From Patescibacteria group bacterium UBA2773 (GTDB taxonomy: Bacteria > Patescibacteriota > Minisyncoccia > Moranbacterales > DUUL01), in NCBI GenBank assembly GCA_002352465.1, contig DEIN01000003.1, forward strand, positions 24,933-88,932: DNA of 64,000 bases. The letters are read 5' to 3'. Below the pieces are notes generated by a model, which did no database searches, was not told the origin of the DNA, and was given only the letters and a program-made list of their open reading frames with translations. Positions 49,681 through 52,023 of the stretch are shown here, piece by piece. Made by a program: the position numbers and the translations under genes. How positions within the stretch are numbered: position 1 is the stretch's first letter; each line of letters starts with the position of its first letter.

Positions 49681-52023
49681 TTAAGCTAAAATAGCCTTTA
49701 CTCGTCGAACACCCGCCGAAGAAGATTTTTCTTGAATAATTTTAAATAAACCTTTAATTTCGTTAGTGTTATCAATGTGAGGACCACCACAAATTTCTTT
49801 GGAATAATCACCAATAGTAAACACACTGACTAAATCGCCATATTTATTTTCAAAAGATCCGTGCGCACCAGCTTTTTGAGCTTCTTCTAAACTCATTTCT
49901 TCTTTAACAACAGTAGTTCCACTTTGAATAGCTTCGTTCACAAAATCTTCAACTGATTTTATTTGATCTTCGGTCAATTTATCGGGATGAGAAAAATCGA
50001 ATCGAATTCTTGCACCATTGATATTTGAACCTTTTTGAAAAACGTGATTTCCCAAAACTTTTCTAAGTCCTGCCAAAAGCAGATGAGCCACTGTGTGAAG
50101 TTGCTTAGTTTGCTCTTTAGTATCAGCCAATCCTCCTTTAAACATTCCAGCACTAGCCGTTCGAGAAAGCAATTGATGCCTTTCAAGTTCTTGCTGAAAA
50201 CTTTTTTCATCGACTCTTAATCCTTGCTCATGAGCTAAGTCACAAACCATTTCGATTGGAAATCCATAAGTTTGAAATAGATCAAAAGCTTCTTTTCCTG
50301 TAATCACTAAATCATTACCACTGTCAAAAATTCCTTCTTCTACTTTAATTTTTTGATCAGGTGTTCCTTTAATAAATTTTTCTAGAGCTAAAAAGCGATG
50401 AGAAATTTTGTTTTTCTCCTCTCCTAATTCAGCAAACGTTTTATCATAACCTTTAGGCATAAAAATTGGATCAAATCCAAAATCAGCATTGTTCTGTCCC
50501 TTTCGCTCTTCAGTTATTTGACCTTTCACTGAACCCTCAAAAAAAGAAATTTCTTTTCCATCAAAATAAGCAATCACACATTTAGCCTCAGCATTTCGAT
50601 TTTTATTTTCTGTCAAATCTAAAATCCCTTGAGTTCCTAAATATTTATCCAACCATTTAATTAAAGCTCCTGGAAAACCGTTCCAAGCTTCTAAATGGAG
50701 AGCTGTGTCTTCAACAATAATTGGTCTTTTTATCGATTTATAAGCTTCAATTATTTTATATTGAGCCACTTCTCGAGAATCAATCGCTTGAATTTCAGGT
50801 AAATTTGATTGATAAAAACTAAGACTCATCGAATCCTTAATTAAATCTTTGTATTCTTTGATTTTTTTAGGGTTAGAAGAAACTAAAACCACATCTTGCT
50901 TTTTGGAAATTATTTTTTCAAATTGTTTTAAGCCTTTTTCTAAAGTAGCTTGAAATTTTTGTTCTTCGTCTTTAATCACGTTTAAAATAAGCTTCTCACT
51001 CACTTCGGGGTAAATATCTTTATAAATTTCCTGAACAGCTGTCCCGATTTGCTCAGTAAATAAATAATCAATTCCCATTTTATTTGCTTCTCTAACAGCT
51101 CTTCTGATTAATCGTCTTAAAATATAACCTCGTTCGTTGTTTGAAGGCTTAATTCCATCAGCCACCATAAAAACCGAGGCTTTGATGTGATCAGCGATAA
51201 TTCTAAATGATTTTTTATTATCTTGATATTTTTTGTTTGATAGCTCTTCAATTCTTTTAATAATCGGCTGAAATAATTCTCCTTCATAATCATCTTTTAA
51301 TCCATTTAAAATTGCCACAATTCTTTCTAGCCCCATTCCAGTGTCAACATTTTGTTGAACAAGTTTTTGAAAAGATCCATCCACTGTTTTTTTATATTCC
51401 ATAAAAACATTATTCCAAATCTCAACCCATTTATTATTTTTTGGATCAAATTTTCTAGGAATTTCATTGGTATCACCAGTCCAATAAAAAATTTCGGTAT
51501 CTGGCCCACAAGGTCCAGTTTCGCTAGGAGGTCCCCACCAATTTTCGCTTTTAGGAAGCTTAGCAATTCGATCTTCTGAAAAACCTAGTTCTCTCCATTG
51601 CTCAAAAGACTCTTGATCAAAAGACGCATCATGATCTCCTTCAAAAACTGAAACTGCTAACCGCTCTCGATCCAATCCCAACCATTGAGAAGAAGTTAAA
51701 AATTCGCAACTCCATTGAATGGCTTCTTGCTTAAAATAGTCACCCAAAGACCAATTCCCCAACATTTCAAAAAAAGTATGATGAGTAACATCACCAACTT
51801 CTTCGATATCAATCGTTCGAATACATTTTTGAATATCGACCAATCGAATTCCTTGTGGATGTTTTTCTCCCATCAAATAAGGTACTAAAGGTTGCATCCC
51901 AGAACTTATAAACAAAGAAGTTGGATCATTTTCTGGTACTATCGAAAAAGAAGACAAAGCATTGTGTTTTTTTAATTCAAAAAATTTTATAAATTTTTGT
52001 CTCAATTCCTGAGCTTGAATCAT
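49681..52023 (-). CDS. alaS: alanine--tRNA ligase with inserted Ham1/RdgB (ITPase) domain; lacks C-Ala domain
   Basis: AlaRS catalytic core ([17 protein letters not shown]), editing domain (HTVAHLL..., CGGPH); residues about 376-553 = Ham1 domain (SNPKK, [40 protein letters not shown], SHR). Confidence 0.85.
   Translation of the reverse strand: [780 protein letters not shown]

Follow-up and report, generated by a model that had tools for sequence, protein, structure and literature searches.

Architecture of the fused alaS gene

The open reading frame (ORF) at positions 49681–52023 on the minus strand of the window, by which we mean the whole 64-kb stretch of DNA that was analyzed, encodes a short alanyl-tRNA synthetase (AlaRS) that lacks the C-Ala domain and carries a full-length Ham1/RdgB domain in its interior. 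A first-pass annotation made from the nucleotide sequence had described a 780-aa ORF here, and this ORF and all of the peptide motifs quoted for it were present in the minus-strand translation. The features of the gene are as follows.

49681..52023, minus strand: complete alaS::ham1 ORF, 780 aa plus stop codon (49681–49683), from the ORF list and NF002436
50899..52023, minus strand: AlaRS N-terminal segment, residues 1–375, comprising the class II catalytic domain and the start of the helical domain that recognizes tRNA
50368..50892, minus strand: inserted domain of the Ham1/RdgB type, a predicted (d)ITP/XTP pyrophosphatase, residues 378–552, from PF01725, TIGR00042, and the fold match to 1b78
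50308..50367, minus strand: return linker, residues 553–572 (20 aa), leading from the Ham1 C-terminal helix to AlaRS, of low conservation and varying length
50272..50274, minus strand: codon for Q584, the equivalent of the G3-reading residue Asp400 of Escherichia coli according to the alignment with 3hxu
49684..50307, minus strand: AlaRS segment after the insert, with a second tRNA-synt_2c stretch, tRNA_SAD (residues 732–775), and C745xxxH749, and without C-Ala

A Pfam search, which the first-pass annotation had proposed for fixing the boundaries, placed tRNA-synt_2c at residues 6–377, Ham1p_like at residues 378–552, and tRNA_SAD (PF07973; E = 8e-14) at residues 732–775. The AlaRS match (PF01411; E = 2e-131) was split by Ham1 into two pieces flanking the insert, with residues 6–377 corresponding to profile positions 1–378 of 552. 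Among the NCBIfam models, the short-AlaRS family NF002436 scored 758.1 bits (cut-off, 529) and TIGR00344 scored 577.9 bits (cut-off, 457), and an AlaXM-like match spanned residues 637–778. The N-terminal segment, which includes N295 (N303 in E. coli) and a long helix at residues 344–373, aligned with residues 3–371 of Aquifex aeolicus AlaRS and 5–383 of E. coli AlaRS; the segment after the insert aligned with residues 378–423 and 388–439, respectively. When fused and unfused proteins were aligned, the conserved segments of the catalytic core (including R69), the residues P293, S294, and N295, and the zinc-binding HxxxH/CxxxH residues of the editing domain (H643, H647, C745, and H749) were all invariant. 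The AlaRS half is thus predicted to charge tRNA-Ala.

The unfused short AlaRSs of Moranbacteria (NF002436/PRK01584 type; P0018–P0120, 580–640 aa) are collinear with the fused protein and 60–69% identical to it over the AlaRS parts. They share its catalytic core, its minimal editing core with HxxxH/CxxxH, a conserved 16-residue linker, and a Gln at the D400 position, whereas they have only a variable loop where the fused protein has a 197-residue insert containing a whole enzyme. C-Ala, one of the four domains of the "prototype" architecture, is indeed missing from the fused protein, as first noted, the chain stopping five residues past tRNA_SAD; however, the unfused relatives also lack the domain, so its absence characterizes short AlaRSs in general and is not specific to the fusion. 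Database protein P0001, which occurs on two contigs of up to 287,550 bp, was 100% identical to the window protein, and the G+C content across the insert (0.30–0.33) was the same as that of the flanks.

Searches of the surrounding DNA detected no second alaS or Ham1 gene in the 64-kb window or in 10 related loci with flanks of up to 10 kb (window and loci together about 230 kb). Rfam models run over the whole window matched only a tRNA-Glu, with no T-box or other regulatory RNA upstream of alaS, and no tRNA-Ala gene lay within the window. Promoter-like and terminator-like sites occurred at or below their frequency in shuffled sequence. An origin of the fusion from a neighboring rdgB was considered and rejected: in L004 and L005, the unfused relatives that were inspected, no Ham1 gene adjoined alaS, and a 189-aa ORF downstream of alaS in L005 had the size expected of rdgB but encodes a pilin-like protein.

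The insert is a full-length Ham1 domain

The first-pass claim of a complete, in-frame Ham1/RdgB domain inside a collinear AlaRS was borne out by the profile searches. PF01725 (Ham1p_like) matched residues 378–552 with high significance over profile positions 1–185 of 186 (E = 3.3e-43; 148.2 bits against a cut-off of 22.5), which places the domain at nucleotides 50368–50892, within a few bases of the proposed 50365–50898. TIGR00042 (RdgB/HAM1) was passed marginally, at 146.8 bits against a cut-off of 145.35, and the archaeal-type model NF011396 matched end to end with 161 bits, under its equivalog cut-off of 203. Mj0226 (1b78) matched the insert with an E-value of 2e-34. Identity to solved Ham1 structures was 33–41%, and the closest full-length stand-alone relatives among 1.84 billion representatives were at most 50% identical to the insert.

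The insert contains the motifs S382-S-N384-P-K-K387, P409-E410-I-Q, V437-E438-D439-T, G449-FPGALIKW457, F515-G-F-D518-P-I-F, and K537-N-K-I-S541-H542-R543, which align with those of Mj0226, PH1917, and the Plasmodium falciparum ITPase. In the structures of ITPA and Mj0226, these motifs bind phosphate, Mg2+, and the base. All of them (SxN..K, PE.Q, EDT, GFPG, FGFDP, and K..SHR) were invariant in 16 full-length fused sequences, which diverge to 60% within the Ham1 domain. The insert therefore appears to be catalytically intact and is predicted to be a (d)ITP/XTP pyrophosphatase.

An AlphaFold2 model of the fused protein, a check that had also been proposed, had a pLDDT of 85.6 and a pTM of 0.64, so that the inter-domain geometry is uncertain, while the Ham1 domain itself mostly reached pLDDT values of 85–95. 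In Foldseek comparisons, the modeled Ham1 domain superposed on Mj0226 (1b78) with a TM-score of 0.87 and an rmsd of 1.7 Å over 177 residues, and scored 0.84 against human ITPA (2car) and 0.91 against KomB (8zsg); the model matched E. coli 3hxu with a target-normalized TM-score of 0.83. In the model, then, the insert adopts the Ham1 alpha/beta fold. It shares its full-length domain, motifs, and fold (TM-scores of 0.83–0.87) with stand-alone enzymes of the Ham1/ITPA/Mj0226 type (PF01725; 1b78, 1v7r, 2car, and 8ji1), but these are free proteins of about 185 aa, whereas here the domain is anchored at both ends within another enzyme.

The insertion site is an indel-prone loop near the G3:U70-reading residues

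The whole insert, including the return linker, comprises approximately residues 376–572 (197 residues) and takes the place of a 6-residue loop of A. aeolicus AlaRS. Residue 374 aligned with E. coli residue 383 and residue 573 with E. coli residue 388, so that about four E. coli residues are replaced. The first-pass assignment of the insertion to the E. coli loop ALLDEELAK was therefore close as to location, but the insert follows the segment aligned with LLDEELAK and replaces the roughly four residues after it. Fused and unfused proteins aligned cleanly on either side. The spacing between the anchor motifs was 14–117 aa in unfused relatives (median, 21) compared with 219–222 aa in fused proteins, and unrelated insertions at the same loop reach about 100 aa (P0019). 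These features are best read as indicating a permissive, indel-prone loop that caps a helical hairpin of the tRNA-recognition domain.

The return linker had a mean pairwise identity of 40% (minimum, 5%), compared with 76–79% in the domains, and contained indels; the pLDDT fell to 58 in the block of residues 561–570. Such a poorly conserved and flexible linker suggests that the Ham1 domain is loosely tethered. In Nanoarchaeum equitans and other Nanoarchaeota, AlaRS is naturally split near E. coli residue 368, with an alpha subunit corresponding to about E. coli residues 1–368 (PMC11392972), and by our alignment the present insertion, after E. coli residue 383, would lie about 16–20 residues from this split point. 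The nanoarchaeal enzyme shows that the halves do not need a short covalent link to fold and work together; together with the indel hot spot, the nearby split suggests that both AlaRS halves can still fold around the insert. The two cases differ in that the nanoarchaeal halves are encoded by separate genes far apart on the chromosome, with no foreign domain, whereas here one polypeptide is bridged by a foreign enzyme.

The Asn and Asp pair that reads G3:U70 is incomplete in the fused AlaRS: the Asn is kept (N295), and the Asp is replaced by Q584, as assigned by alignment with E. coli 3hxu (YDTYGFP vs. FQTYGFP). Q584 was invariant in fused and unfused relatives; of 71 scorable relatives, 65 had Gln at the D400-equivalent position and none had Asp. 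D400 is the G3-reading residue in E. coli, yet functional AlaRSs without this Asp are on record, with Ile in N. equitans and Thr in Tupanvirus (PMC10036535, PMC11392972). The missing Asp weakens a claim of "prototype" recognition and leaves the identity of the protein as an AlaRS untouched. The chain returns to AlaRS at residue 573, only 11 residues ahead of Q584, which may bring the Ham1 domain close to the acceptor stem of the tRNA; a degree of functional interplay is possible.

The fusion recurs in one clade and is conserved

A search for the same architecture in relatives, as the first-pass annotation had advised, returned 17 protein clusters (67–100% identity) in a small Moranbacteria clade. 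They came from independent NCBI, JGI, ENA, and Logan assemblies, some being present on 6–21 contigs, and shared both junctions, which were also found in five GTDB species-representative genomes; the early reading that both junctions are open thus holds beyond this contig. The ORF was intact in all seven additional fused-clade loci analyzed; L002 and L001 encode the same protein. In the window, as in L001 and L002, the gene order is ybeY-mreB-alaS, and L003 has a different context, dnaJ...alaS-radical SAM. The misassembly that had been named as a risk is excluded, since the junctions recur in assemblies of independent origin and in more than one gene context, and in the homologs the insert belongs to a single uninterrupted ORF and is not an overlapping gene of its own.

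In a neighbor-joining tree made from AlaRS-only columns on a reduced set of taxa, the fused proteins were monophyletic in 50 of 50 bootstraps, and their clade nested among ordinary Moranbacteria AlaRSs. Since the fused proteins form one clade on AlaRS-only columns, the architecture goes back to one insertion event in an ancestor of a narrow clade of Moranbacteria (Patescibacteria). Mean identity among fused proteins was 76% for Ham1 and 79% and 76% for the two AlaRS segments. For informative pairs of fused-clade loci (L003 and L010 being an identical pair), dN was 0.09–0.17 both for Ham1 and for the AlaRS parts; dN/dS was 0.06–0.15 for Ham1 and 0.02–0.13 for the AlaRS parts, values that are approximate because dS was near saturation (0.8–2.7). 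By these estimates, the insert is under purifying selection equal to that on the essential AlaRS parts. The first-pass annotation had left the function open between coupling and a tolerated insertion; as the insert is under selection and its active site looks intact, an insertion that is simply tolerated while it decays is ruled out.

Possible functions of the fused protein

Given the architecture, recurrence, single origin, purifying selection, intact motifs, and fold established above, we consider it probable that the protein is a vertically inherited bifunctional enzyme, an AlaRS and a Ham1 pyrophosphatase joined by one insertion at a permissive loop, with activities that are most likely independent, and that the insert was kept as a house-cleaning enzyme. 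A whole Ham1 of the archaeal/eukaryotic type (ITPA/Mj0226-like) would have been inserted once into the short AlaRS of a Moranbacteria ancestor, with the flexible 20-residue linker leading the chain back into AlaRS. The AlaRS part would charge and proofread tRNA-Ala as usual, while the Ham1 part would use K387, E410, E438-D439, FGFDP, and SHR to convert (d)ITP or XTP with Mg2+ to the monophosphate and PPi, the two activities most likely running independently. The fusion may have been retained since it tied the expression of a needed house-cleaning enzyme to that of an essential gene; the insert is probably the sole ITPase of a small genome and the fused gene its sole AlaRS.

Coupling of the two activities seems unlikely. 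A Ham1 domain beside the G3:U70-reading helix could aid tRNA-Ala binding or discrimination, dimerize the enzyme via the Ham1 interface, or make charging respond to non-canonical purine nucleotides. Stand-alone Ham1 enzymes (Mj0226, ITPA, and RdgB) are homodimers, which is in keeping with such a role, as are the re-entry into AlaRS 11 residues before Q584, the conservation of the Ham1 domain as strongly as AlaRS, and the absence of C-Ala, the dimerization and main tRNA-binding module (PMC10036535). However, C-Ala is likewise missing from the nearest unfused relatives, which have Gln at the D400 position as well, so there is nothing for the Ham1 domain to compensate. Moreover, the same loop accepts unrelated inserts as long as about 100 aa (P0019), the weakly conserved, flexible linker suggests a loose tether, and the conserved residues of the insert are the catalytic motifs of an ITPase, as in an ordinary enzyme. 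It is likewise rather doubtful that the Ham1 domain has become part of the working of AlaRS itself, as a new tRNA-binding or dimerization module or as a link between Ala-tRNA charging and purine-pool quality. One may speculate that misincorporation of ITP would be specifically harmful to the identity of tRNA-Ala, since an inosine at position 3 of the tRNA has no 2-amino group, which AlaRS needs. The fused protein is in this respect a candidate for coupling nucleotide-pool sanitation to translation and, if such integration were true, would be the first AlaRS known to have recruited a functionally integrated new domain.

It is very unlikely that the Ham1 domain is catalytically inert, having been co-opted for a structural or nucleotide-binding role alone. 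The marginal TIGR00042 score and the divergence of the domain from stand-alone proteins (at most 50% identity to the closest full-length ones) would agree with a loss of activity, but every catalytic and ligand-binding motif is invariant over the 16 full-length sequences, the fold is canonical, and the matches to PF01725 and NF011396 are full-length. We give still less credence to the fused gene being a paralog with a non-translational role while a canonical alaS elsewhere charges tRNA. Only part of each genome was inspected, which leaves room for such a gene; against it, the AlaRS parts have dN/dS values of 0.02–0.13 with invariant catalytic and editing residues, the roughly 230 kb of window and related loci contain no second alaS, and the fused clade nests among ordinary Moranbacteria AlaRSs. 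In addition, Patescibacteria genomes are small and usually single-copy for aminoacyl-tRNA synthetase genes. An artefact or a set of several proteins, whether from a chimeric assembly, a hidden frameshift, an internal start, or a spliced-out intein-like element, is effectively refuted by the identical junctions seen across five species genomes and across assemblies made independently in four data sources, the uninterrupted frame in all loci examined, the homogeneous composition, a valine codon (GTG, GTA, or GTC in four loci) and no conserved start codon at the N-junction, a Ham1 rather than a Hint/intein fold, and promoter- and terminator-like sites no commoner than in shuffled sequence.

Relation to other AlaRS and Ham1 architectures

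AlaRS is a textbook aminoacyl-tRNA synthetase with a frozen architecture. The fused clade is a natural counter-example to the published view that AlaRS has never gained a new domain. The AlaRS described in PMC10036535 also departs from the "prototype" architecture, having no canonical Asp at the G3-reading position while still reading G3:U70, but that case is one of domain loss, whereas the Moranbacteria fusion is a domain gain in which the editing domain is kept.

Other Ham1 fusions include tandem Ham1 proteins and combinations with guanylate kinase, adenylate kinase, DUF218, or HAD phosphatase. Ham1 is also found in the polyprotein of the potyviruses CBSV/UCBSV, and KomB of the Kongming defence system is a Ham1 module that works with other proteins. 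The fusions among the long proteins in the best matches are end-to-end and mostly with enzymes of nucleotide metabolism; none is internal and none involves an aminoacyl-tRNA synthetase. Such end-to-end fusions fit the opportunistic fusion of a house-cleaning module. One 796-aa protein with Ham1 at residues 612–789 (P0241) was considered as an independent AlaRS-Ham1 fusion and rejected, as Pfam detected two Ham1 domains and no AlaRS domain in it.

The suggestion that the fusion had not been described agrees with our literature search, in which no description of an AlaRS or other aminoacyl-tRNA synthetase combined with Ham1 or ITPase was found, the single match (PMC3899948) being unrelated. The fused clade marks a structurally permissive AlaRS site that may be usable for protein engineering and offers a test case for the rise and persistence of domain insertions in reduced genomes. 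Databases name the fused proteins only "non-canonical purine NTP pyrophosphatase" (MFO7807170.1, MFW5885211.1, and IMG entries), and because of this naming, name-based gene inventories of fused-clade MAGs could miss AlaRS.

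An internal Ham1 domain in a short AlaRS

The first-pass annotation had described the alaS ORF as an AlaRS with an embedded Ham1 domain, and profile searches bore this out: Pfam divided the ORF into tRNA-synt_2c, Ham1p_like, and tRNA_SAD, NCBIfam agreed, and all the motifs quoted earlier were found in the translation.

49681..52023, minus strand: alaS::ham1 ORF, 780 codons
Residues 6–377: tRNA-synt_2c (Pfam), profile positions 1–378 of 552; the profile matches again beyond the insert
Residues 378–552: Ham1p_like (Pfam, E = 3.3e-43), profile positions 1–185 of 186
Residues 732–775: tRNA_SAD (Pfam)
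Residues ~376–572, nt 50308–50898: whole insert, 197 residues, Ham1 domain plus return linker
Residues 553–572: return linker, 20 residues

The protein belongs to both component families, each well known, scoring 758 bits against the short-AlaRS equivalog NF002436 (cut-off 529) and 146.8 bits against the RdgB/HAM1 family TIGR00042 (cut-off 145.35). In its AlaRS parts, the signature segments for catalysis and the HxxxH/CxxxH residues for editing are preserved; two "prototype" features, the C-Ala domain and the Asp half of the Asn/Asp pair, are absent, as they are from the unfused relatives. The G+C content of the insert equals that of its flanks.

We found no description of an AlaRS–Ham1 or aaRS–ITPase fusion in the literature. 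The architecture itself is firmly established, and it runs counter to the published generalisation that AlaRS never gained a new domain. Fused proteins are already public (among them MFO7807170.1, MFW5885211.1, P0007, and other IMG entries), where the sole name that NCBI and IMG give to those of 780 aa is "non-canonical purine NTP pyrophosphatase (RdgB/HAM1 family)". An inventory based on gene names could overlook the AlaRS in MAGs of the fused clade.

Recurrence and single origin of the fusion

Among 5.8 billion clustered proteins searched, 17 clusters shared this three-domain architecture (67–100% identical), drawn from NCBI, JGI, ENA, and Logan assemblies and in several cases present on 6–21 contigs; they were 780–783 aa long, save two N-terminally shorter ones (771 and 664 aa). 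The remaining matches were AlaRSs of 580–640 aa without Ham1, from Moranbacteria or Patescibacteria where named. The insert and both junctions were present in five GTDB species-representative genomes (66–85% identity), and the reading frame was unbroken in seven additional extracted fused loci. A ybeY–mreB–alaS context is shared by the window and the related loci L001 and L002, the latter two encoding the same protein as each other, and other genes flank alaS in the more distant L003; the fusion has therefore outlasted genome rearrangement. In a neighbour-joining analysis of AlaRS-only columns, the 16 full-length fused proteins formed one clade (50 of 50 bootstraps). Together, these results indicate that the fusion is real and arose once. 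The nearness of the insertion site to a natural split in nanoarchaeal AlaRS suggests two ways in which the fusion could have formed: the insertion may have been direct, or alaS may have been split and later rejoined around an rdgB lying in between; no rdgB adjoined alaS in two unfused relatives. Several fusion-bearing GTDB records bear the title "uncultured Bdellovibrionales bacterium", at odds with the Moraniibacteriota/Patescibacteria labels of close relatives.

The insertion site

In an alignment of the window protein, seven further fused homologs, and nine Moranbacteria AlaRSs that lack the fusion, fused and unfused proteins were collinear on either side of the insert, with ~200 residues between in the former versus a short variable loop in the latter. 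Alignment to solved structures placed residues 375 and 573 at A. aeolicus AlaRS 371 and 378, and the insert edges at E. coli residues 383 and 388; the insert therefore stands in for a 4–6-residue loop. The spacing from the TLxKG to the xTYGFP anchor motif was 14–117 residues (median 21) in 55 unfused relatives and 219–222 in the fused clade. This loop is an indel hot spot that insertions have struck repeatedly.

The site falls between the equivalents of E. coli N303 and D400, the residues that read the G3:U70 identity pair (PMC10036535). Nanoarchaeum equitans and other Nanoarchaeota have an AlaRS that occurs naturally as separate alpha and beta subunits, the former corresponding approximately to E. 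coli 1–368 (PMC11392972); the site in the fused protein lies ~16–20 residues downstream of that split. Given this nearby split, the AlaRS halves are demonstrably able to fold and work together when no short covalent link joins them here, which explains why a 197-residue insertion is tolerated.

The unfused homolog P0019 (679 aa) carries an unrelated ~100-residue insertion in exactly the same loop, and several other Moranbacteria AlaRSs have 20–40 extra residues there.

The position equivalent to D400 is itself altered.

50272–50274, minus strand: codon of Q584

Gln-584 (FQTYGFP) replaces the G3-reading Asp of E. coli (YDTYGFP). Among 71 scorable Moranbacteria-type short AlaRSs, this position was Gln in 65, Asp in none, and Ser, Thr, or Glu in the rest; the Asn303 equivalent was kept. 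This pattern suggests a lineage-wide variant mode of G3:U70 recognition, unrelated to the Ham1 fusion.

Type and conservation of the inserted domain

In an exhaustive phmmer search of 1.84 billion representatives with the insert as query, the entire fused clade collapsed to one 50%-identity representative, and no full-length stand-alone Ham1 above 50% identity was found; a 126-aa fragment reached 59% over the covered part. The closest stand-alone Ham1 proteins were 44–50% identical, those named coming from DPANN archaea (Micrarchaeota, Nanoarchaeota, and Pacearchaeota) and other Patescibacteria (Niyogibacteria and Absconditabacteria). The insert motifs aligned with their equivalents in Mj0226 (E = 2e-34), PH1917, and the P. 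falciparum and human ITPases, and RdgB structures matched at only E = 1e-8 to 1e-9. The domain is thus of the archaeal/eukaryotic ITPA/Mj0226 type rather than that of E. coli RdgB. Other long Ham1 proteins among the best matches were end-to-end fusions (to a second Ham1 in tandem, guanylate kinase, adenylate kinase, DUF218, or HAD phosphatase), in contrast to the internal insertion in alaS::ham1; none had an aaRS partner or an internal insertion.

Mean pairwise identity among the 16 full-length fused proteins was 79% for N-terminal AlaRS, 76% for Ham1, 76% for C-terminal AlaRS, and 40% for the return linker, and S-[ST]-N-x-x-K, PE[IV]Q, [IV]EDT, GFPGAL[IV]KW, FGFDP[IV]F, and K[NQ]xxSHR were invariant in all 16. 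Nei–Gojobori dN/dS for closer pairs was 0.06–0.15 in Ham1 and 0.02–0.13 in the AlaRS parts, ratios that are approximate because dS (0.8–2.7) was near saturation. An AlphaFold2 model from a 129-sequence alignment had a mean pLDDT of 85.6; its AlaRS catalytic fragment matched E. coli AlaRS (target-normalised TM 0.83) in an alignment bridging the insert, and its inserted domain matched Mj0226 (TM 0.87, rmsd 1.7 Å over 177 residues) and human ITPA (TM 0.84). The insert is maintained by selection and looks active.

The HAM-like subunit KomB of the Kongming anti-phage system (8zsg, 9v0g, and 9xvc) matched residues 380–551 with TM 0.86–0.91 (E ~1e-14 by fold, 3e-26 by sequence) and is as close in fold to the inserted domain as the house-cleaning ITPases are; no defence genes were observed in the neighbourhood of alaS.

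Model confidence is lowest elsewhere.

Residues 619–637, window 50113–50169: segment between the tRNA-recognition domain and the editing core, which it connects

This segment takes the place of the beta-barrel subdomain of long AlaRSs and hardly varies among the 17 proteins aligned, whether fused or unfused; its pLDDT is 29 at 621–630 and below 50 at 620–635. It may fold only when tRNA or another partner is bound.

Independent or coupled activities

Our best estimate is a single bifunctional protein: the AlaRS part would activate alanine, charge tRNA-Ala, and edit mischarged products, the tethered Ham1 domain would hydrolyse (d)ITP/XTP, and the fusion would have been kept because the Ham1 domain is needed. 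Neither the 64-kb window nor ~170 kb from related loci yielded a second alaS or Ham1 gene. The main rival, functional coupling of AlaRS and Ham1, draws on the insert rejoining AlaRS only 11 residues ahead of Q584 and on the lack of C-Ala, the normal source of dimerisation and tRNA-elbow binding, in an enzyme joined to a Ham1 domain, Ham1 enzymes normally being homodimers. We consider coupling rather unlikely. The flexible, poorly conserved linker, the tolerant loop, and unfused sisters that work without such a domain suggest that the two activities are independent. Plain co-expression of two independent enzymes is most likely the explanation of the fusion.

Surroundings of alaS

48836–49413, minus strand: remnant of uvrB a short way downstream of alaS, comprising ORFs of 51 and 141 aa that differ in frame
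48471–48635, minus strand: 54-aa ORF, weak MazE/AbrB-type antitoxin match (22.3 bits, below the cut-off of 24.7)
47768–48388, minus strand: HAD-family hydrolase, seemingly split in two adjacent ORFs
12037–12109: tRNA-Glu, the only tRNA in the window

The uvrB remnant ORFs match UvrB profile positions 1–43 and 49–141 of ~655; the Walker A region contains a frameshift and the remainder of the gene is absent. In L001, unrelated small ORFs occupy this position. No obvious toxin partner adjoins the antitoxin-like ORF. In the HAD pair, an 87-aa ORF bearing a DVDG motif (no Pfam or NCBIfam match) and a 117-aa ORF matching HAD_2 positions 85–176 are separated by a stop codon or frameshift, which may reflect a pseudogene or a sequencing error. 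Beyond tRNA-Glu, no other Rfam family was detected in the window (1–64000). Strand bias is extreme: the window has 43 ORFs that reach 180 aa or more, and 42 of them lie on the minus strand. Throughout the profiled 47–55 kb stretch, GC skew is negative.
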